Source: an uncultured Bacteroides sp.
Lineage (GTDB): Bacteria; Bacteroidota; Bacteroidia; Bacteroidales; Bacteroidaceae
Assembly: GCA_944322335.1 (NCBI GenBank)
Contig: CALUOU010000003.1
Coordinates: forward strand, 722 to 64,721
Length of the DNA stretch: 64,000 nt
Direction: 5' to 3'
Shown here: positions 9,221-45,417 of the stretch, one piece after another
Layout: each line of letters starts with the position of its first letter
Position numbering within the stretch: the stretch's first letter is position 1
Translations under genes and position numbers: made by a program
Notes under the pieces: generated by a model
The model's input: the letters and a program-made list of their open reading frames with translations, nothing else
Databases searched by the model: none
What the model was told of the DNA's origin: nothing

Positions 9221-9398
9221 CACAATTTTATTTTTATTTTTGATATGGAAAGACAATAAAAAAAACTTCCATTAACTTTTTTTGGATAAAATCCTGTAAA
9301 GAGTCTGTGGCTATCAGGAGGACTGGCGTGTTTGTTTTTTAGCTGAAAAAAGTGCGGAAACGCGACTTTCAAAAAGGGCATTTCCGCATTGATTCTAT

Positions 9399-36171: not shown

Positions 36172-37278
36172 TATTGGTGTCCGATAAAATTTTAGCATCG
36201 TAAGTGAGAGTAATCCATGGCGTATTCCATCGTGGTTTACTCCCTTTACATTGCAATCCAACCCCTCTATGTGAAAAGTTCCAACTGTGTCGGTCCTTCC
36301 GGTGCGGCTTTCAGTATGGCCTCCCAGTCTTTTCCCGGATGGTTGAACAGGCTGTAGAAATTCACATAGTACATTAACATTATCCGGACCATTGTCGCCA
36401 GTCTGGAGAAGCTCCATGAGCGTGTCAGCCCTTTCTTCATGATTGTCAACAGAAGATTGGCTATGAGTGTCACCCAAATCTGTATCTTGATGGCATTTGC
36501 GCTTTCCCCATAAAAGTACTTGAGGGGGAAGTTCTGTTTTATCTGCTTGAAGAGCAATTCTATCTCCCAACGTTTGCGGTAGATGGCAATAATCTCCGTA
36601 GGGGCTGATTCCATGTCATTGGTCAACAGCTGTACAAGTCTATGCTTTCTCTCATCGGCATGCGTGATGATACGCGCGTGATGGATGACAGTTCCCCCTT
36701 CCTTGAGTACCTTGGTGAATGTTACATGCTGTATGCGGACCTCCATAAGTCCGTCCGGAGTCTGGTACATCATGTCCGAGAGTATGTTGTATTTCAGATT
36801 TTTCTTCATCTTCGTGACATAAACGACTCCCCTTTTCGTCAGTTCCTCAAACTTCTCATAGTCAATATAAGCACGGTCTATGGCCAGGATGTCCCCCTTG
36901 TCCAAGGATGCGGGTTTCAGCATGAAGGAGTCATTGGTGGCGGCGGAAGTGAATCGCACGTCCGATGGGACGCCCTCGTTGGCGTGGATAACGGTATGCG
37001 CCTTTATGCCGCCTTTCTTACTGCCAGTTTTCGGATGACGGCCGGCGCCTTTGAATATCAGGTTGGAGAAAAGGGTGATGGTCGTGGAATCAATTATCCG
37101 CAGGCGTTTCATCCAGGACGGCTCCTAGCCGCTCTGGCTGTCCGCTAAAATGTGTACTTTTGCCCATGGTTACTTCTTTTTGGTGTGGTAACCGCAAAGT
37201 AACCACATGGGGCTGAATCTACCAAATAGAAACGCCCCCCTTTTTTGAACAACTTAAAGTTTTATCGGACACCAAATA
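36172..37278 (-). mobile_element. IS4-family insertion sequence, internally deleted (1107 bp)
   Basis: Terminal inverted repeats TATTGGTGTCCGATAAAA / TTTTATCGGACACCAAATA. The 9-bp direct repeat TTTAAGAAT lies at 36163-36171 and 37279-37287. Confidence 0.88.
36267..37167 (-). pseudogene. IS4-family DDE transposase pseudogene
   Basis: The start MGKSTHFSGQP at 37167 joins out of frame to the DDE part (IIDSTTI, DRAYIDY, YRKRWEIELLFKQIKQN). An in-frame TAG lies just before the DDE part. Confidence 0.85.
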
Positions 37279-37399
37279 TTTAAGAATAATAATTTTGTTA
37301 ATACTATTTAACTGTTTGCGTGTGACGCTTTCGTTTCTAAATATGTAATTTTGCAAAAAAGAATATTTAATTGTCTTTTCAAGACCAATGCATTTTTTA

Positions 37400-37429
37400 T
37401 TTGTTGATATGTAGGCAATTCTATATTTG
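37400..37429 (+). promoter_or_regulatory. Candidate promoter of the RiPP precursor
   Basis: TTTG at 37400-37403 and TATATTTG at 37422-37429, about 56 bp before the ATG. Confidence 0.55.
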
Positions 37430-37485: not shown

Positions 37486-37740
37486 ATGGAAATAAAAAGA
37501 TTGGATGTACCCAATTTAGGGAAAAGTGAATTTTCAGCTGCTGAGGCAGAGGAGATATTAGGTGGTGTCATGACTGATGACGGATACGAGATCGCGTGTG
37601 TCGGATTGGGTGGTATTTGCAAGGAAAGCTGTAAGGATGGCTGTAAGGATAGTACGAAAGATGGTGGTCTTTGTTCTGATTCTTGTAAGGATGGCTGTTC
37701 TGAAGGGTGTAAGGATTCGTGTAAACCCGGAAATAAGTAG
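37486..37740 (+). CDS. Cys-rich RiPP precursor peptide (double-Gly leader, CxxxC-repeat core)
   Basis: 84 aa. The leader ends in EFSAAEAEEILGG and the 57-aa core has 9 Cys. It lies upstream of a radical SAM/SPASM gene. Confidence 0.85.
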   Translation: MEIKRLDVPNLGKSEFSAAEAEEILGGVMTDDGYEIACVGLGGICKESCKDGCKDSTKDGGLCSDSCKDGCSEGCKDSCKPGNK

Positions 37741-38155
37741 CGGTCTATAAATAAGAAGAATGTGGATTGTCGCCCACGCCTAAGGTTTTGAAGGTAGATG
37801 AGATGGGGCTTTTTAAAGGCTTGCCAATATCTGTGTCTCTGAGCAAATTTCATTCAGATGTTTAATGTGACTGAGTCGCGTGAGGAGTGGATATATGTTT
37901 TTTTAGGGGGCAATTGGTGGTAGGGGTGATTTCTGCGTGTTTTTCCTTTGTTCAAAAATGATTCTGATTGAGGATAGGATGATCGTTTGTTCGCATCATT
38001 TTCTTGCGTTATCAATGTAGATGGAAGGTCGATTCTTGTAGTTTAGCATTTGTTGCTGGCGGTATGTGCATAACGTGTGCCTATTGCATTGGTGCTTACG
38101 CCGATCTTGTATTTATGTTATTGAAATCTCGAAAAAAAATAAACGGATCACTATT

Positions 38156-39634
38156 ATGAAATATATGAAATACATACTTAATCCTGCTTATTTGTTGAGG
38201 CAGGATGGAAATAGGGTTATCTTGTTTTATAGAGATGATATTGAATCTAGTGGTGAAGAGTGGTTCACTTTCATTCATCCTTTGCAGGCATGTATGCTGT
38301 CCTTTTTTAGAGGTGAAGAATCCTTTGATAAGGAACTGGCCAAGTGTTCAACGTTTTTTCAGATTTCATTTGAGAAAATGAAAAGGATTATTTCTCCTTT
38401 TGTAGATAATCCAAAGTGGTTTGCAATCTCTCAAAAAAATGGTCATAACATATGTTTCCCAAAAAGAATGTTGATCGAAAAAAAAGAGAACATGCGACGT
38501 CCGTTCTATTCCGTTGAAGATTTCACTTACTGTAGAGATCCTGATTATCATACTCATAGACTTCAGTATCCAACAGGGGTTAATATAGAGTTAAATATGA
38601 AATGCCGTACTGATTGCATTTATTGTTATGCTAATAAGAAAGCGTATGCGAATGATTGTTTAAGTACGCAAATGATACTCGATTTTATTAGGGAAGCAAA
38701 ACGGGGAGGAGTCCTTAAAATGGATATTAATGGGGGTGAAGTTTTACTCCATCCAGGAATAAAAGAAATTTTGCAGACTCTATTGGAATGTGATTACAAC
38801 CCTTTGATTTCAACCAAATTACCTGTAAGTCATGAAATGGCAGATTTCATTAAATCTTTGGGGATTAGCAGGATTCAGTTGTCTTTAGATTCTGTAGACC
38901 CATTGGTGTTAAAGTCTTTGTTGAAGGTGGATATATCCTATATTAGGGAGATAGAGAAAGCTTTAGATTATTTGAATCAGATTCATTTGCGAACAGACAT
39001 TAATGTAGTTTTGACCAAAATGAATTCTAATGTCGATGATTTCAAAGCTTTGATATCTTTTCTGTCTAAGTATGAGGTAATAAAGTTTGTTAGAGTAAGT
39101 CCTTGTGGGTATTCTCTTTACAAAGATGGATTTGATGCATTGGCACCAACGGTAAAAGAAATCGAAGCTATAGAATCTTGTATCGGGAATTTGAGAGATG
39201 ATTACCCCAATCTTAATATTAAGATTTCTTCTTACGAGAAAGGTGACATGTATACGTTGGCATGTCGGAAGCAAAGTTTTCCCAGGCGTGCAATGTGTAC
39301 AGGAAATGTAAGAAATGCTGTAGTGTTGCCTAATGGAGATGTTACTATATGTGAGGAGTTGTATGCTCATCCTAAATTTATTATCGGCAATATTAAAACT
39401 AACAGTCTGAGCGAAATTTGGAATTCTGAAAAGGCTGTTCAACTCTATCATTTCGCATTTAATAGATCTTCAGACAGTATTTGCTATGAATGTAGCGTGC
39501 GGCAGAAATGTCGGGTAGGCAAAGGCGTATGTTGGAAGACTGTATTAATGGCTTATGGAATGGACAAGTGGGATTATCCTGACCCTAGATGTCCTGCAGC
39601 TCCAGAGTTTAAAAATATATTTTATCATACTTGA
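38156..39634 (+). CDS. Radical SAM/SPASM peptide maturase
   Basis: CRTDCIYC (CxxxCxxC), NGGEVLLH, and a SPASM-type C..VLPNGDVTIC...IGNIKTNSLSEIWNS...CYEC....KC....GVC...DPRCP tail. About 140-aa N-terminal extension. Confidence 0.92.
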   Translation: MKYMKYILNPAYLLRQDGNRVILFYRDDIESSGEEWFTFIHPLQACMLSFFRGEESFDKELAKCSTFFQISFEKMKRIISPFVDNPKWFAISQKNGHNICFPKRMLIEKKENMRRPFYSVEDFTYCRDPDYHTHRLQYPTGVNIELNMKCRTDCIYCYANKKAYANDCLSTQMILDFIREAKRGGVLKMDINGGEVLLHPGIKEILQTLLECDYNPLISTKLPVSHEMADFIKSLGISRIQLSLDSVDPLVLKSLLKVDISYIREIEKALDYLNQIHLRTDINVVLTKMNSNVDDFKALISFLSKYEVIKFVRVSPCGYSLYKDGFDALAPTVKEIEAIESCIGNLRDDYPNLNIKISSYEKGDMYTLACRKQSFPRRAMCTGNVRNAVVLPNGDVTICEELYAHPKFIIGNIKTNSLSEIWNSEKAVQLYHFAFNRSSDSICYECSVRQKCRVGKGVCWKTVLMAYGMDKWDYPDPRCPAAPEFKNIFYHT

Positions 39635-39722
39635 TTTGTTATGGATGCGTGCTATGTTAAAAAAAACGGTGTGTTGTGATCTCAACAAGCTGTAGTTGTA
39701 AAAAAATGTAATGTTTGGTACT

Positions 39723-42149
39723 ATGAGAAAAAGATTCTTATTTGTCATATATCTCTTCTGTCTTTTAGGGGGAAAGCTTTTGGCACAGTCTAAGAATATC
39801 GTTGTTTGTGATCAGGGGGAACGGATTCCTTTGGAGATGGTTACCGTATTGTTTTTTGATGAGAAGAAAGATGTTATAACTACCGCAATAACTTCTGAAA
39901 CGGGAGTGGTATCGTTGGATTCTGGAAACTCGTCAAAGATCAGCACCCTTAGATTTAGCCGTTTGGGCTATCATCCATTAGAAGTTAAAATGTTGCAGTT
40001 GGCTGATACGGTGTTTCTTCAGCCTTCAACACAGTTAGATGAAGTGGAAATCACCGCTTACAGGCAACTTGTCAAGTTAAAGCCGGGAAAACTCATTTAT
40101 GAGGTGGAAAATGACCCGGAAGCTCGTGGCAAAAACACATTTGACGTTATGCATAAAGTCCCTTTGCTAGTTGTCAACCGTCACAACGGCACTGTCTCAT
40201 CCGAAGGAGGGCAGACGATTGTCTATCAATTGAACGGCAAGCGTGATGCCTTGTTCTATGGAAATCTGGAAAGCGTCCTGCGGGCATTGGAAGCCGGTTC
40301 GGTGAAGCGGATAGAAGTGGTCACACAGCCTGGCATCGAATATGGGCCTAATACGCTTTTGGTAAACATCGTGACCAAAGGCAGGATTGAAGGATTTAGC
40401 AGTACCGTCAGCACGGATGCGAGCGACAGCAGATGGAGAAACACTTTGTTTGGCATGACAAAATACAAGAACTTCACCATGTCCTTGGCCTATACCAACC
40501 GTTGGGATTACGGCCATAGTGCTGTGGACGAACGTGAAGAATATCGTGAGAACTCTACGGACAATCATTTCTTCTACAAGCGGACAGATGATTATGGCTA
40601 CAAGGCGGATGCCCACGATATCGAAGGGACGGCGAGCTATGAAATCGGCGATTTTTCCTTGCTGAGCGCTTACGGGCGTGTCATTTTGAGCAACGCCAGC
40701 AATCCACATCAGGATATGCGTGAAGTGGGAACGATGTTCCGTCAGGACGGCACACGCAACTATTCTTACGCCAATCGGAGCCACAGGCTGTTTCTGAACA
40801 GTGAGTATGATGCCTACCTCTTTTACGAGCGGAGCTTGGGCAGGGGCGGGCAGCAGGGGAAGTTCTTCCTTGGTTATCGTTTCTACAAACGTCCTTTCGA
40901 TGAGACGACCACACTGAAATACGAAAGTCTGGACTTTGCAGACGATGTAGATGCCGGTCAGAGGGATGACTTCTATGATTACGTCCGGAGGCATAAATCC
41001 TCCAGAGGATACCACACGGTGGAGACGGAATTCACCCGTCAGATAGGCACCCGTCATAAGGTGTCAATAGGCGGGAAATACATCATGAGACCGGAGAAGG
41101 AAGATTACACACTGGACGTGTCACCCGTCCATGCGTCATCCTTCACGAGGAGTGAAGAGGGGACGAGCCGTTACACCCACCACCAGCACGTGTTCAACGG
41201 CTACGCTTCGTATAATTATCTGGCATCCCGTTTCAGTCTTACGGGCGGTATTGTCTATGAGCTGCAGCATGACCGTTTGCGTCATTCGGTCGCCTCGCAC
41301 AATCTGGACAAGACTTTCAACAACGTTTTTCCGCGCCTTACCATGGCATATGCCTTTCCCAGAAAAACATCCTTGGAGCTGAGCTATGCAATGTCGGCTC
41401 TCCGTCCTGACATCTTCGCTCTTGACCCCTATGTAGATGCCACTGTCCCCATGCAGCTGTCGTACGGCAATCAACGGCTGAAGCCTGAGATATCCCATGC
41501 CTTGCAGTTGAGCGCCTACCATGATCTGGGCCGCTATACGTTGCGGTGGGCATTGTCACATCAGCATACCAACCGCATCATTTTGGATTACCGTTTTTTG
41601 GATGGAGACATGCTCCACCTGACCAAAGACAATCTGGGAAGGAAGGATCTGACCGCCTTGAGTGTCTGGTTCTCAGGACGGCCGGTCCGCAATCTGTTTA
41701 TACGCCTGTCGCCGACTGTGCAGTATACGTACTATGACGCTTCAAGGCTTTCTATGCAGAACGACGGGTTCTTTTTCCGGCTGCGCGGCGAGATGGAACT
41801 GGAATTGCCGCATGATTTCTACTTGGGTGCCGACGGTGGCTACAACACGCGCTACATCATGTTGCAGGGGCGAGGGAGCACCAGCTATAATTTCACGTTC
41901 TCTCTTTCTAAATATTTTTTGAAGAATCAGTTGCGGGTCTCTTGCAGTGCAGGAAGTTTTTTCCCAGTACATTATACGAAACACAATGACTGGTCGGCCG
42001 ATAGCTACCGTTATCATTCCTCTTACCGGTATTATCAGGCATATTTCAACGTGGGTGTTCGCTACACTTTCGGCCGTTTGAAGGCCCGTGTGAAGAGCAC
42101 TTCCAAAACCATACAAAATAACGACCTTAAAACAGATTATAGTGAGTGA
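39723..42149 (+). CDS. TonB-dependent receptor-like outer-membrane beta-barrel protein
   Basis: Signal peptide, carboxypeptidase-regulatory-like N-domain (LDEVEITA), plug-like VKRIEVVT, YGNQRLKPE and terminal VGVRYTFG. Confidence 0.85.
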   Translation: MRKRFLFVIYLFCLLGGKLLAQSKNIVVCDQGERIPLEMVTVLFFDEKKDVITTAITSETGVVSLDSGNSSKISTLRFSRLGYHPLEVKMLQLADTVFLQPSTQLDEVEITAYRQLVKLKPGKLIYEVENDPEARGKNTFDVMHKVPLLVVNRHNGTVSSEGGQTIVYQLNGKRDALFYGNLESVLRALEAGSVKRIEVVTQPGIEYGPNTLLVNIVTKGRIEGFSSTVSTDASDSRWRNTLFGMTKYKNFTMSLAYTNRWDYGHSAVDEREEYRENSTDNHFFYKRTDDYGYKADAHDIEGTASYEIGDFSLLSAYGRVILSNASNPHQDMREVGTMFRQDGTRNYSYANRSHRLFLNSEYDAYLFYERSLGRGGQQGKFFLGYRFYKRPFDETTTLKYESLDFADDVDAGQRDDFYDYVRRHKSSRGYHTVETEFTRQIGTRHKVSIGGKYIMRPEKEDYTLDVSPVHASSFTRSEEGTSRYTHHQHVFNGYASYNYLASRFSLTGGIVYELQHDRLRHSVASHNLDKTFNNVFPRLTMAYAFPRKTSLELSYAMSALRPDIFALDPYVDATVPMQLSYGNQRLKPEISHALQLSAYHDLGRYTLRWALSHQHTNRIILDYRFLDGDMLHLTKDNLGRKDLTALSVWFSGRPVRNLFIRLSPTVQYTYYDASRLSMQNDGFFFRLRGEMELELPHDFYLGADGGYNTRYIMLQGRGSTSYNFTFSLSKYFLKNQLRVSCSAGSFFPVHYTKHNDWSADSYRYHSSYRYYQAYFNVGVRYTFGRLKARVKSTSKTIQNNDLKTDYSE

Positions 42150-42150
42150 T

Positions 42151-43197
42151 ATGAGCCGTTTGTTGAATGATATAATACTAAAGGAATTGTCTCTCATGCG
42201 TAAGGGAGATCTCTTTTTACAACATGGTATAATGGGGTATGCCATCTTTTGTTTTTGGTATGGCCGCCTGAAAAATGACAATAAATATACAGAAATCGCA
42301 GAGCGATGCTTAATGCACGTTTGCAAATCCGTCAATGATAAATGTTCGTTGGGCGTTTTTGATGGACTATCTGGCATTGGAATAAGTATATGTTACCTTT
42401 GTGCTGAGGATTATCTGCAAGGGAATCCTGACGGTTTGCTTCAAAGCATTGATGACTACATGTTTAAGGTGATACAAAAGGGGTTGCAGCAAGAGCATAT
42501 TGAGGATGAAAAATATATGGATTCGTTGTTGGATGTAATGCTTTATATAAATGTTCGTTTAAGAACAGAGATTAGAAAACCTTATGAGAAGCATATTTTA
42601 GAGCTGTTCTTTATAAAAATATTAAATTGGCTATATCAAAATGCCGGTTCTTTGCTTTTCGAAGAACCACTACCTGCCAATTTATCATATAGACTTGCAA
42701 AATTCTTTTTTGTTTTGGGATATGCTTGTGACTTGAATTTTTATAATTATCGCATAAAGAGAATAATAAAAGAAATTGAAACCGTTGTATTGTCACGCAT
42801 TCCATATAGTAGTTTTAATCGATTAACATTATATTGTTCGTTGAGCATACTTACACGTCAAATAAGATTGGGCGAACGATGGACTCTGTACATTGAAACA
42901 TTGAAAAACAGTATTTCAATAGAAGAAATATTGTGTAAAGAGATAAAGTCTTATAACATGTTTTTTTTCGATGGCTTGGGAAGTGTTTATTTATTATATA
43001 AATATTGCAACAAAAATGGATTGATATTTGATGTTTCAGAGGATTGTTTTATAAGAAAACTGCAAGCTTCAGAAATTTGGAAAATGTTGGATGATTCTTT
43101 TGATTACAAGCCTTTGGGACTGGATGGCTTTTTGGGATTAATAATGGTTTTTGAAAACAGGCTAAATTTTTTTAATACAGTAAATGGAGAAAATTGA
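42151..43197 (+). CDS. Lanthionine synthetase C-like (LanC-like) protein
   Basis: Repeated GxxG loop motifs (QHGIMG, FDGLSGIG, FDGLGS, LDGFLG) in a helical protein. Alternative GTG start at 42142. Confidence 0.7.
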   Translation: MSRLLNDIILKELSLMRKGDLFLQHGIMGYAIFCFWYGRLKNDNKYTEIAERCLMHVCKSVNDKCSLGVFDGLSGIGISICYLCAEDYLQGNPDGLLQSIDDYMFKVIQKGLQQEHIEDEKYMDSLLDVMLYINVRLRTEIRKPYEKHILELFFIKILNWLYQNAGSLLFEEPLPANLSYRLAKFFFVLGYACDLNFYNYRIKRIIKEIETVVLSRIPYSSFNRLTLYCSLSILTRQIRLGERWTLYIETLKNSISIEEILCKEIKSYNMFFFDGLGSVYLLYKYCNKNGLIFDVSEDCFIRKLQASEIWKMLDDSFDYKPLGLDGFLGLIMVFENRLNFFNTVNGEN

Positions 43198-43972
43198 TTT
43201 TAGAGATTTAACTTTCCTTGTCCCTGTCAGATTAGATTCTATCATACGATTAGAAAATCTATTAGTATCTATTGATTCAATCAGCAAAACTTTTGATACC
43301 AATATTTATGTATTGGAGTCTTCTTCATATAAAAATGGGATATTGGAACAGATCTTGCCTAGTAATGTTGAATATGTTTTTGTGGAAGATAAGGATCCGA
43401 TCTTTTACAGGACATATTATTTGAATTATATGGCTCGTATTGTTCATACTGATTATTTAGCAATATGGGATGCAGATGTAATTATTGACGATCGGCAGCA
43501 AATTGAAGCTGTTGATGCATTGAGAAATTGTCATTATGATGTTGCTTTTCCGTATGATGGTCACTTTTATGATACATCGGAAATCATTAGAGAAGTTTAT
43601 TTAACGACAAAAGATGTTGCTGTTTTATTTGACAATATTGGAAAAATGTCGTTGCCTTATGGACATCATACGAATGGAGGGGCCATTTTCTTGAATAGAG
43701 AAAGTTATGTTAACGCAGGTATGGAGAATGAGAATTTCTATGGATGGACTCCGGAAGATGTTGAAAGGTTCGTAAGATGGAAAAATTTGGGATATAAAAT
43801 ATTTAGGTCAGAAGGTCCTCTTTTTCATTTGACGCATCCAAGAGATATCAATGGTCGTTATAATTCTATTTTACAAAAGAGGAATGGCTTTTATTCTTTG
43901 CAGGAAATGGCAGCTTGTTCTGCAGTAGAAATAAAAAAAATGATAAATACTGAAAGGTTCAAATCCTTATGA
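43184..43972 (+). CDS. GT2/GT7-like (galactosyltransferase-related) glycosyltransferase
   Basis: DLTFLVPVR, WDADV and GGAIF...AGMENENFYGWTPED (GT7 C-terminal motif). Confidence 0.82.
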   Translation: MEKIDFRDLTFLVPVRLDSIIRLENLLVSIDSISKTFDTNIYVLESSSYKNGILEQILPSNVEYVFVEDKDPIFYRTYYLNYMARIVHTDYLAIWDADVIIDDRQQIEAVDALRNCHYDVAFPYDGHFYDTSEIIREVYLTTKDVAVLFDNIGKMSLPYGHHTNGGAIFLNRESYVNAGMENENFYGWTPEDVERFVRWKNLGYKIFRSEGPLFHLTHPRDINGRYNSILQKRNGFYSLQEMAACSAVEIKKMINTERFKSL

Positions 43973-45417
43973 AGCATGCATTATTATTAATATGGCATAA
44001 AGATTTTGATCAACTAAAGGAACTTATAGAGTTTTTCGATGGTGATTTTTGCTTTTATGTTCATATTGACAGTAAAAGTGTACTTGATAAAAGTCAGTAT
44101 GAATGGTTGAATCATCATGCTTCTGTGTATAAGAAATTCAAAGTAACTTGGGGTGGTTTTAATTTGCTTAAAGCTGAATTGTTTCTTATAAAACAGGCTG
44201 CTGCAAATACGGAAGTTGATTATATTCATGTCATGAGTGCGCAAGACTATCCCATTCGAAATCTGAAATTCATTAAAAAAGTATTTGAAAAAGAAACAGG
44301 TTCAGAATTTTTGTCTTATTGTAGAATACCTTTTATTGAATGGGATGAGGGAACCTATAATAGATTTGAATATTATAGACCTTATGATTTTTGTGCTAAT
44401 TTCCCTTATTTCGGAAATAAATTGTTGCAGTTGATAGAAAAAGTTCAGGTCACTTTTAATTTTAAAAGGAGAATCCCCAATCAATATGATTATCTATATG
44501 GCGGATCTAATTGGATTTCAATAACCCGTAATTGTGCAGAGTATTTGGTATCTGAGTATAATCATAAGTTCTTTCGTAGATTAAGATGGACTTTTGCTCC
44601 AGAAGAAACCTTTTTCCCGACTGTTATAATGAATTCTCCTTTTGCTGTAAATGTGAAAAATAACAATCTTAGATACATCGTTTGGCATAAAACACGAGAT
44701 GGTCATCCCAAAGTATTAGATCACACAGACTGGGGAGGCATTGTTACAAGTGATGCTCTATTTGCCCGTAAGTTTGAGAATGGCAAGTCAGATCTCTTAA
44801 AATCTTGTTTAAGACGTTATCTATTTCGAGAAGAAATTTTTGCTGAAGGCATTAATGGGGAATGGTTGACTGAGTCTTTGTCTGGGCATTGGTATGATGC
44901 ATCTTTGGGAAGAGCCATATTGGACGTTTTGCCATATGCAGATGCTAAAGATATTGCAGATTTTGGCTGTGGCCCCGGATGGTATACTTATTTATTGAGG
45001 AAACATGGTTATTGCGTCAACGGATATGATGGCAATCCACATGTTAAAGAAATGTCTTCCTTGTTTTTTCAGGACGGTTTTTATTGTCAGCATGTAGACT
45101 TGACTGAATTTTTAGAAATAGACGATCCTTTTGACATGATCATTAGTCTTGAAGTAGGGGAACATATTCCCGATAAATATGAAGATATTTTCATTCATAA
45201 TTTGGTAAGAAATTCAAAAAAGTATCTTCTTTTAAGTTGGGCTTTGCCTAAACAGTTGGGAAGTGGTCATGTGAATTGCCATACCAATGAATATATCATA
45301 GGCAAAATGAAAGAATATGGTTTCTACATTAATACCCCCATAACAAATTATCTTCGTGCCAAAGCTTCTTTTAAATGGTTTCAAAAAACCATTATGTTTT
45401 TTCAGAAATATGAATAG
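43969..45417 (+). CDS. GT14 (beta-1,6-GlcNAc-transferase/branching type) fused to a class I SAM-dependent methyltransferase
   Basis: N-part: HIDSKS, VTWGG, SAQDYPI, GGSNW, PEETFF, LFARKF. C-part: DFGCGPG, SLEVGEHI. Confidence 0.85.
   Translation: MKHALLLIWHKDFDQLKELIEFFDGDFCFYVHIDSKSVLDKSQYEWLNHHASVYKKFKVTWGGFNLLKAELFLIKQAAANTEVDYIHVMSAQDYPIRNLKFIKKVFEKETGSEFLSYCRIPFIEWDEGTYNRFEYYRPYDFCANFPYFGNKLLQLIEKVQVTFNFKRRIPNQYDYLYGGSNWISITRNCAEYLVSEYNHKFFRRLRWTFAPEETFFPTVIMNSPFAVNVKNNNLRYIVWHKTRDGHPKVLDHTDWGGIVTSDALFARKFENGKSDLLKSCLRRYLFREEIFAEGINGEWLTESLSGHWYDASLGRAILDVLPYADAKDIADFGCGPGWYTYLLRKHGYCVNGYDGNPHVKEMSSLFFQDGFYCQHVDLTEFLEIDDPFDMIISLEVGEHIPDKYEDIFIHNLVRNSKKYLLLSWALPKQLGSGHVNCHTNEYIIGKMKEYGFYINTPITNYLRAKASFKWFQKTIMFFQKYE

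Follow-up and report, generated by a model that had tools for sequence, protein, structure and literature searches.

The DNA analysed here, a stretch of 64,000 nucleotides from an uncultured Bacteroides sp. (GenBank assembly GCA_944322335.1, contig CALUOU010000003.1, positions 722 to 64,721 of the forward strand), is called the window below, and it carries at positions 37486–45417 a six-gene cluster for a peptide that is made by the ribosome and then modified post-translationally (a RiPP). The system is a real, uncharacterised variant of the RiPPs modified by radical S-adenosylmethionine (SAM) enzymes, equipped with a glycosylation module of a LanC-fold protein and glycosyltransferases (GTs) and with a TonB-type outer-membrane barrel. 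The gene set is conserved as a unit in other genomes and its proteins belong to recognizable folds and families; from these we infer a product that would bear cross-links, sugars and a methyl group. We hold it to be fairly probable that the cluster is a horizontally acquired and intact RiPP operon, of a type recurring in gut Bacteroidaceae, and that it works by the steps proposed below.

Gene set and its conservation

The six genes and their products are as follows (positions are those of the window; L, G and P numbers in the text are our handles for loci, genomes and proteins).

37486–37740, + strand: precursor peptide gene, 84 amino acids (aa), identified from its translation
38156–39634, + strand: radical SAM/SPASM peptide maturase (rSAM), 492 aa; PF04055, PF13186 and TIGR04085
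39711–42149, + strand: outer-membrane barrel with signal peptide, 812 aa; PF14905, 4.6e-53
42151–43197, + strand: zinc-less LanC-fold protein (LanC-like), 348 aa; PF05147, 4.3e-10
43184–43972, + strand: GT-A glycosyltransferase resembling Glyco_transf_7C (GT7-like), 262 aa; weak PF02709/PF10111 matches
43969–45417, + strand: fusion of a GT14 (Branch) glycosyltransferase with a class I SAM methyltransferase (GT14-MT), 482 aa; PF02485, 3.6e-20, and PF13489, 8.9e-09

The first-pass annotation, made from the letters and open reading frames (ORFs) of the window, had described six co-oriented genes with closely packed ends, and this description holds: the ORF list and translations give six intact + strand genes with no internal stops, and neighbouring ends are 1 nt apart at 42149/42151, overlap by 14 nt at 43184–43197 and share an ATGA at 43969–43972. 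Among the profiles by which it had proposed to recognize the cluster, TIGR04085, PF05147, PF02485 and PF14905 match, while PF02709 gives only a weak sub-threshold score. The more specific models fail: TIGR04114 reaches 15.1 bits on the precursor against a cut-off of 20, TIGR04149 does not match the precursor even at E <= 10, TIGR04115, meant for the rSAM, has no match at the locus, and TIGR04148 has none in the genome. A pseudo-rSAM family is also missing among the NCBIfam matches of the six proteins (for the rSAM, the best 25 of 47 matches).

Evidence for a functional unit comes from its recurrence elsewhere. In Segatella copri HDD04, which belongs to the same GTDB family as this genome, the same six genes stand in the same order, with protein identities of 52, 53, 43, 34, 54 and 55% and GC contents of 0.30–0.36, and their flanks have no synteny with the window at a tblastx threshold of 1e-8. 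Because these six genes are AT-rich and keep their order between unrelated flanks, they appear to form a mobile island kept whole over a long divergence. The metagenome contig L121 repeats the whole set of six genes in unchanged order, at 47–65% identity. Rearranged versions are present in at least four other loci: L125 carries two Cys-ladder peptide genes, rSAM, barrel, LanC-like and GT7-like genes, and a DUF707 protein replaces GT14-MT; L122/L123 and L032 each have two pairs of LanC-like and GT7 genes, every pair directly followed by a peptide gene, together with rSAM and GT14-MT, and L032 has in addition a C39-peptidase ABC transporter (PCAT) and an extracytoplasmic function (ECF) sigma module. 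The expectation that precursor and rSAM are accompanied by the GT and LanC-like genes in other genomes is thus borne out by S. copri HDD04 and L121, and by L125, L122/L123 and L032 as variants.

A same-genus genome, G659, contains at positions 9251–16763 of L087 the genes for GT14-MT, GT7-like, LanC-like, PCAT and HlyD with only two short rSAM fragments, and this looks like a decaying copy of a related cluster.

Precursor peptide and radical SAM enzyme

The leader of the precursor ends in EEILGG, and the core consists of an acidic D-x-Y segment, the Ser/Thr hinge KDSTKDGG and a Cys-rich part ending in PGNK; seven of the nine core Cys residues keep a C-x-x-x-C register, with Cys at every fourth residue. 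Relatives of the precursor have 43–99% identity. Their alignment (A4) shows an invariant first Cys and a terminal G-C-x3-C-x3-C...K, and the features common to the family are the leader, an aromatic residue, the first Cys and the terminal C-x3-C-x3-C...K. Word-indexed homologue searches gave only 4 precursor and 5 LanC-like matches, and an exhaustive profile search was needed for the LanC-like family.

The adjacent enzyme is a radical SAM/SPASM protein (PF04055, 4.4e-15; PF13186, 6.5e-13; TIGR04085 above its cut-off), with a complete CX3CX2C motif at Cys150/154/157, a seven-Cys SPASM tail (Cys381, 399, 443, 446, 452, 459 and 479) and about 140 aa on the N-terminal side of the radical SAM core. 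Its nearest solved chains are PqqE (1.4e-07) and SkfB (9.9e-07). Homologues with 30–38% identity were found in 13 of 400 sampled Bacteroidales species, usually in the layout of rSAM, a barrel of about 780 aa, a PCAT and then a small protein, and Cys-ladder precursors adjoin rSAM homologues in L001, L020, L023, L032, L121, L122 and L125. The smallest version, L020, consists of precursor, rSAM and barrel alone, with MutL and further housekeeping genes directly behind them, and its precursor has the same CKES/CRES/CKDG repeats. These loci, including the minimal one, indicate that the core of the system is precursor plus rSAM, often with the barrel, and that the glycosylation genes are an add-on module.

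The two same-family Cys-ladder precursors of L125 (2277–2807) have no GG cleavage site and lie in a cluster without a PCAT, which suggests a different leader protease there.

Outer-membrane barrel and export

The barrel gene directly follows the rSAM gene in L001, L020, L024, L025, L029, L121 and L125, and lies downstream of it after intervening ORFs in L019 and L021. Clusters of look-alike proteins in the ESM Atlas combine PF14905 with PF00593, CarbopepD_reg and in some cases Plug; since the look-alikes resemble TonB-dependent receptors, uptake or sensing is favoured over export as the function of the barrel. The first-pass annotation had supposed that the peptide could be handled by its own outer-membrane barrel. 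A PF14905 barrel does belong to the cluster; its TonB-dependent-receptor look is of the importer type and not that of an obvious exporter.

The barrel gene also differs in composition, with a GC content of 0.49 and 0.57 at third codon positions (window 39711–42149) against 0.30–0.35 in the rest of the cluster. The barrel of L121 (2052–4466) has 0.56, and those of S. copri and L125 are as AT-rich as the neighbouring genes. The GC-rich barrel could be an old replacement in one sub-lineage.

For export, the genome has a single PCAT, which is encoded together with HlyD in a VKOR/thioredoxin cluster on another contig (C2); the S. copri HDD04 genome likewise has one PCAT elsewhere. The locus on C2 (L118, 47–7369) is a bacteroidetocin-like export cluster. 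It holds genes for a DUF3244 protein, a C39-VKOR fusion and a thioredoxin-like protein beside those for the PCAT and HlyD, and the latter two are likely the trans-acting leader peptidase and exporter for the precursor.

A further barrel was noticed in G614, a genome of the same genus. There, L158 (9754–12922) encodes a barrel of 825 aa, intact and 78% identical in nucleotides to window 39770–42767, and a 229-aa LanC-like stub, with no precursor, rSAM or GT genes nearby; the pair is either an orphan receptor or a remnant.

These properties of the barrel raise the alternative that the peptide is a metal-binding or signalling molecule instead of an antimicrobial, in which a metallothionein-like ladder of Cys, Asp, Glu and Lys would be taken up again through the barrel as a metallophore receptor. 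Membership of the barrel in the TonB-dependent-receptor-like PF14905 group agrees with this, as does its place downstream of the rSAM in 6 of 13 related loci, including the three-gene L020 with no adjacent exporter; an intact barrel kept with only a LanC-like stub in G614 fits an orphan uptake receptor, and an ECF sigma factor with a putative anti-sigma gene occurs in L032 and L026, as in receptor-mediated signalling. However, thiols are usually consumed when a SPASM enzyme acts on a Cys-rich peptide, genes for metal homeostasis are absent from the neighbourhood, the barrel is a putative receptor recognized by PF14905 and not by a plug domain or TonB box, and the G614 barrel is a single case that may be a plain remnant. 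We consider this alternative unlikely; it is compatible with the glycosylation module, and would give the system another purpose and perhaps the rSAM another chemistry.

LanC-fold protein and glycosyltransferases

A further component of the RiPP operon proposed here is the LanC-like protein. Its PF05147 match covers only the N-terminal third, and its AlphaFold2 model (mean predicted local distance difference test, pLDDT, 93) retrieves in Foldseek the cyclases MadC (9.9e-05) and NisC (1.1e-04) and then LanCL2 (7.5e-04), with a TM-score relative to the query (TMq) of 0.63–0.65 for MadC and NisC. The exhaustive profile search collected 4159 representatives of the family at E <= 0.001. Invariant residues are Gly only; D104, Y135, R139 and E267 are nearly invariant, and alignments of 8 or 51 members contain no conserved Cys or His column that could supply the zinc ligands or the catalytic His.

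Two other assignments of this protein were considered. A lanthipeptide system was rejected, since the zinc ligands are absent and no dehydratase (LanB, LanM or kinase/lyase) is encoded among the six proteins of the cluster, to which the search was confined. LanC-like proteins of this kind have been likened to endoglucanases (PMC10352776), but fold matches to GH76/GH105 had E > 0.3, compared with about 1e-4 for LanC proteins.

The genes next to the LanC-like gene bear on its role. When the family was sampled from 300 Bacteroidaceae species without reference to RiPP genes, it was found in 37 species of 17 genera, and its members could be divided by size: full-length copies had a GT7-like neighbour in 11 of 12 cases and half-size copies a GT4-type glycosyltransferase neighbour in 13 of 17, so that the pairing rule holds in 24 of the 29 sampled loci. 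PCAT or HlyD genes often adjoin the sampled LanC-like genes, and natural fusions join the LanC-like domain to DUF3405-like or DUF707 domains. Complex prediction for the LanC-like and GT7-like proteins gave a score of 0.48, whereas the highest of 3 controls had 0.01; at least 96% of contacts are common to the runs, and the partner has a pLDDT of at least 85. Of 80 solved complexes, 58 reached the mark used in this prediction, as did 2 of 110 mismatched pairs, and scores of 0.60 or lower include only 7 of the 80 solved complexes and both mismatches that passed, so that the prediction lends weak support. Taking neighbourhood and prediction together, the LanC-like protein is putatively a non-catalytic partner which presents the peptide to the transferase.

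The half-size proteins, observed in 17 loci (L141–L157), have about 200–250 aa and correspond to the N-terminal half only; with their GT4 neighbours they seem to follow the pairing rule in a second form.

The PF02709/PF10111 matches of the GT7-like protein are weak and sub-threshold. It has WDxD and ENE...GW..ED.ER motifs, its family alignment (A2) contains 41 invariant columns, and its AlphaFold2 model (pLDDT 89.5) is a GT-A fold with DxD, for which Foldseek gives K4CP, B4GalT1/7 and ppGalNAc-T2 as nearest; in a profile search of the PDB, B4GalT7 was best (4.3e-06). The GT14 domain of the last protein is assigned directly (PF02485, 73 bits against a gathering score of 23.4), and its nearest solved protein is human xylosyltransferase 1 (XT1; 7e-10). 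Most of the 402 GT14-MT homologues are full-length fusions. In the order-wide sample only matches restricted to the Branch domain were found outside this genome, and the family-level sample contained full-length fusions. A 777-aa protein, P0060, is a natural fusion of GT7C, Branch and methyltransferase. Elsewhere, GT14-MT homologues accompany an rSAM of another class (Fer4_12 type), peptides and PCATs. The last enzyme of the cluster is variable: this window and several relatives have GT14-MT, L125 has a DUF707 protein in its place, and L029 has GT1 and GT4 enzymes; as the GT7-like enzyme is constant and paired with each peptide, it is favoured as the initiator of glycosylation, and GT14-MT as extender and methylase.

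Two kinds of genes near the GT14-MT loci deserve mention in their own right. A 256-aa protein with a weak DUF3405 match (L032, 11476–12246), with homologues in L088, L092, L095–L099, L101, L102 and L108, often flanks GT14-MT genes, and is fused to a LanC-like domain in P0155. This window lacks it; the protein is probably a further transferase belonging to the glycosylation module. Near GT14-MT/PCAT loci, L093 (6105–6392) and L094 (4516–4878) encode odd peptides, one with at least eight G-S-G-C-[AD/DD/ED]-A repeats and the other with a 90-residue core rich in Cys, Asn and Thr after an ILGG leader.

It may also be thought that the peptide system ends with the barrel, and that the LanC-like, GT7-like and GT14-MT proteins modify an envelope glycan (capsule, lipopolysaccharide or glycoprotein), either for self-protection or as an unrelated passenger of the island. 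The three-gene version in L020 is consistent with such a division, GT7 and GT14 enzymes act mostly on glycans, distant GT14-MT homologues (31–35% identity) occur in about 15 loci in which no RiPP gene was seen, and PMC10352776 argues that these LanC-like proteins are uninvolved in lanthipeptide clusters. Yet the module stays with peptide genes across several rearrangements, with two rSAM classes and with PCATs; in L032 and L122/L123 each LanC-like/GT7 pair directly precedes its own peptide gene; the fold search leads to LanC cyclases and not to glycoside hydrolases; and, among solved proteins, the GT14 domain is closest to a peptide O-glycosyltransferase. On this balance a purely envelope-directed module is distinctly improbable.

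Genomic context of the island

Three further features surround or interrupt the cluster.

36267–37112, - strand: insertion sequence (IS)-type DDE transposase ORF, 281 aa; PF01609 (DDE_Tnp_1), 5.1e-31; upstream edge of the low-GC island
37155–37429, + strand: four TAnnTTTG motifs (37155, 37290, 37346 and 37422) ahead of the precursor gene, found by pattern search
37741–38155, no strand assigned: 415-nt spacer between precursor and rSAM genes, with no noteworthy ORF

The cluster had been described as mostly AT-rich, and it is: five genes have GC contents of 0.32–0.35, compared with 0.465 for the whole window, the barrel (0.49) being the exception, and the drop in GC starts just downstream of the transposase ORF. 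Its placement between conserved housekeeping blocks proved correct on one side only; RNase G and MutY lie downstream, whereas the IS DDE transposase ORF and a thioredoxin-like gene are directly upstream.

TAnnTTTG, which we take to be the Bacteroidetes-type -7 promoter consensus, occurs 56 times on both strands of the whole window (42.4 expected), and the four + strand copies within 275 bp before the precursor gene may be -7 promoter elements. A sigma-70 promoter scan was not above shuffles (29 vs 26.7). The spacer is unique in the genome and contains only weak terminator-like sites; no Rfam family comes up to or near its gathering score there, and a single weak ssnA-like match falls inside the precursor gene. 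The corresponding gap in S. copri is 26 nt.

The island might be taken for a passenger that is silent or in decay in this genome, given the IS at one edge, the long spacer absent from S. copri, the want of an exporter of its own and the decay of same-genus copies (rSAM fragments in L087, a truncated LanC-like gene in L135/L158), but this is highly improbable in view of six intact ORFs, promoter-like motifs before the precursor gene, near-identical DNA in chicken and bird gut metagenomes from 7 studies (one possibly the source of this DNA), and 99%-identity protein clusters with 12–30 member sequences. No RNA run turned up among the data sets containing this DNA.

Proposed maturation pathway

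We propose that the rSAM/SPASM enzyme binds the precursor through its GG leader and turns the Cys ladder into intramolecular cross-links, which would most likely be thioethers of the sactipeptide or ranthipeptide kind. The LanC-fold protein would then serve the adjacent GT-A enzyme as its non-catalytic, peptide-presenting partner, and this enzyme would add a first sugar to the core, for which the Ser/Thr residues of the conserved acidic D-x-Y segment or of the KDSTKDGG hinge are candidate sites. The GT14 domain would add a second sugar, and the fused methyltransferase would methylate the product; GT14 might equally well act first, in the order of the xylosyltransferase/B4GalT7 pair. After cleavage of the leader behind GG, the peptide would be exported by the single C39-peptidase ABC transporter of the genome, and passage of the mature peptide through the outer membrane may fall to the TonB-receptor-like barrel, for which re-uptake or sensing is likelier than export.

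Several observations weigh against this pathway. No equivalog model reaches its cut-off for the rSAM in the NCBIfam scan (best scores at most 79 bits against cut-offs of at least 265), and since the enzyme is far from every characterised maturase, thioether formation is proposed as the commonest outcome for Cys-rich SPASM substrates. The 140-aa N-terminal extension of the rSAM has no Pfam match at E <= 0.01 to a PqqD-like recognition element. Asp/Glu at repeat position 3, a PapB-like acceptor, is not conserved in KPG-type relatives of the precursor, and the leaders of the two L125 precursors end in EILSD and ELLDS, without a GG site. No exporter gene lies inside the cluster. Finally, the presence of more distant GT14-MT homologues in about 15 loci in which no RiPP gene was noticed indicates that the fusion is not restricted to peptides.

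A wider and more speculative proposal can be formulated on the same observations, and it is a tentative one, which we would be somewhat surprised to see confirmed in full. In it, zinc-less LanC-fold proteins would be an unrecognised class of peptide-recognition subunits of glycosyltransferases, full-size with GT7-like and half-size with GT4 enzymes, by which gut Bacteroidales would build methyl-capped, animal-like O-glycan starts (xylosyltransferase/B4GalT7-like or mucin-core-like) on rSAM cross-linked peptides; TonB-type re-uptake would then make the product a glycopeptide signal, a metallophore or a mucin mimic instead of a classical bacteriocin.

If the proposed pathway is correct, this would be the first RiPP combining radical-SAM cross-links with a multi-step methyl-capped glycan, as far as our non-exhaustive literature coverage extends. 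It would also give a function to many zinc-less LanC genes flagged by genome mining in Bacteroidales, where 263 loci with rSAM and LanC have been counted (PMC10352776). The carriers are abundant gut bacteria (Segatella copri and chicken-gut Bacteroidaceae) and the enzymes are the closest bacterial relatives of animal peptide-glycosylating enzymes; with such carriers, the product could bear on microbe–microbe or microbe–host interaction. The pairing rule of LanC-like proteins and GTs is directly testable at the bench.

Comparison with known systems

The statement that no characterised product has this gene combination agrees with the literature covered by our search, subscription journals lying outside it. 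In silico, however, related loci have been listed: a survey of 2023 (PMC10352776) reported 263 uncharacterised Bacteroidales loci with rSAM and LanC and 41 with rSAM, LanC and GlyS, and described LanC-like proteins without the zinc triad and with carbohydrate-active enzymes (CAZymes) nearby. Because the combination of rSAM, zinc-less LanC and CAZyme has already been listed there, the word new, as used in the first-pass annotation, can mean uncharacterised but not unseen. Those Bacteroidales systems (clusters BGC3-5), together with the GG-Bacteroidales models TIGR04148/04149/04150, resemble the present cluster in the Bacteroidales host, the GG leader, the rSAM, the LanC-like protein without the C...CH zinc triad, the nearby CAZymes and the frequent absence of a PCAT from the cluster; the present cluster differs from the GG-Bacteroidales group in having neither a TIGR04148/04149 match nor a pseudo-rSAM gene among its six. 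The pair of TIGR04114 (target repeat) and TIGR04115 (rSAM_Cxxx_rpt) is alike in concept, with Cys at every fourth residue beside an rSAM/SPASM enzyme.

Ranthipeptide and sactipeptide systems (PapB-freyrasin, CteB-thermocellin and AlbA-subtilosin) share with this cluster an rSAM/SPASM enzyme beside a leader-bearing precursor with repeated Cys. The rSAM is nevertheless outside their sequence families (35 bits for AlbA against a cut-off of 850, and 36 for SkfB against 300), and the glycosyltransferases, the LanC-fold protein and the barrel are additions. PapB links Cys to Asp or Glu (PMC9413430), and most repeats of the precursor in this window carry Asp or Glu two residues after Cys; the repeat is, however, C-x-[DE]-x and not C-x3-D, and the family does not keep the acidic residue throughout.

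Glycocins (sublancin, glycocin F and thurandacin) resemble the proposed pathway in being ribosomal peptides with a GG leader that receive their sugar in the cytoplasm, from the GT-A enzyme of an adjacent gene, before C39 export. They are made with a SunS-type GT2 and disulfides, and have no radical SAM enzyme, LanC-fold partner, second GT or methyltransferase, all four of which are encoded in the present cluster. LanC and LanCL proteins (NisC, MadC and LanCL1/2) have the same alpha/alpha-barrel fold and GxxG repeats as the LanC-like protein, which differs from them in lacking zinc ligands, in being paired with a glycosyltransferase and in belonging to a cluster without a dehydratase gene.

The families of the nearest solved relatives of both glycosyltransferases are found together in the animal pairs XT1 (GT14)/B4GalT7 (GT7) and ppGalNAc-T/core-2 GlcNAc-T (GT14). 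In animals, such pairs attach the first two sugars to Ser/Thr residues in acidic peptides rich in Gly and Ser. The likeness is one of low identity and concerns parts of domains only, and the bacterial pair is distinguished by its fused methyltransferase and its LanC-fold partner.

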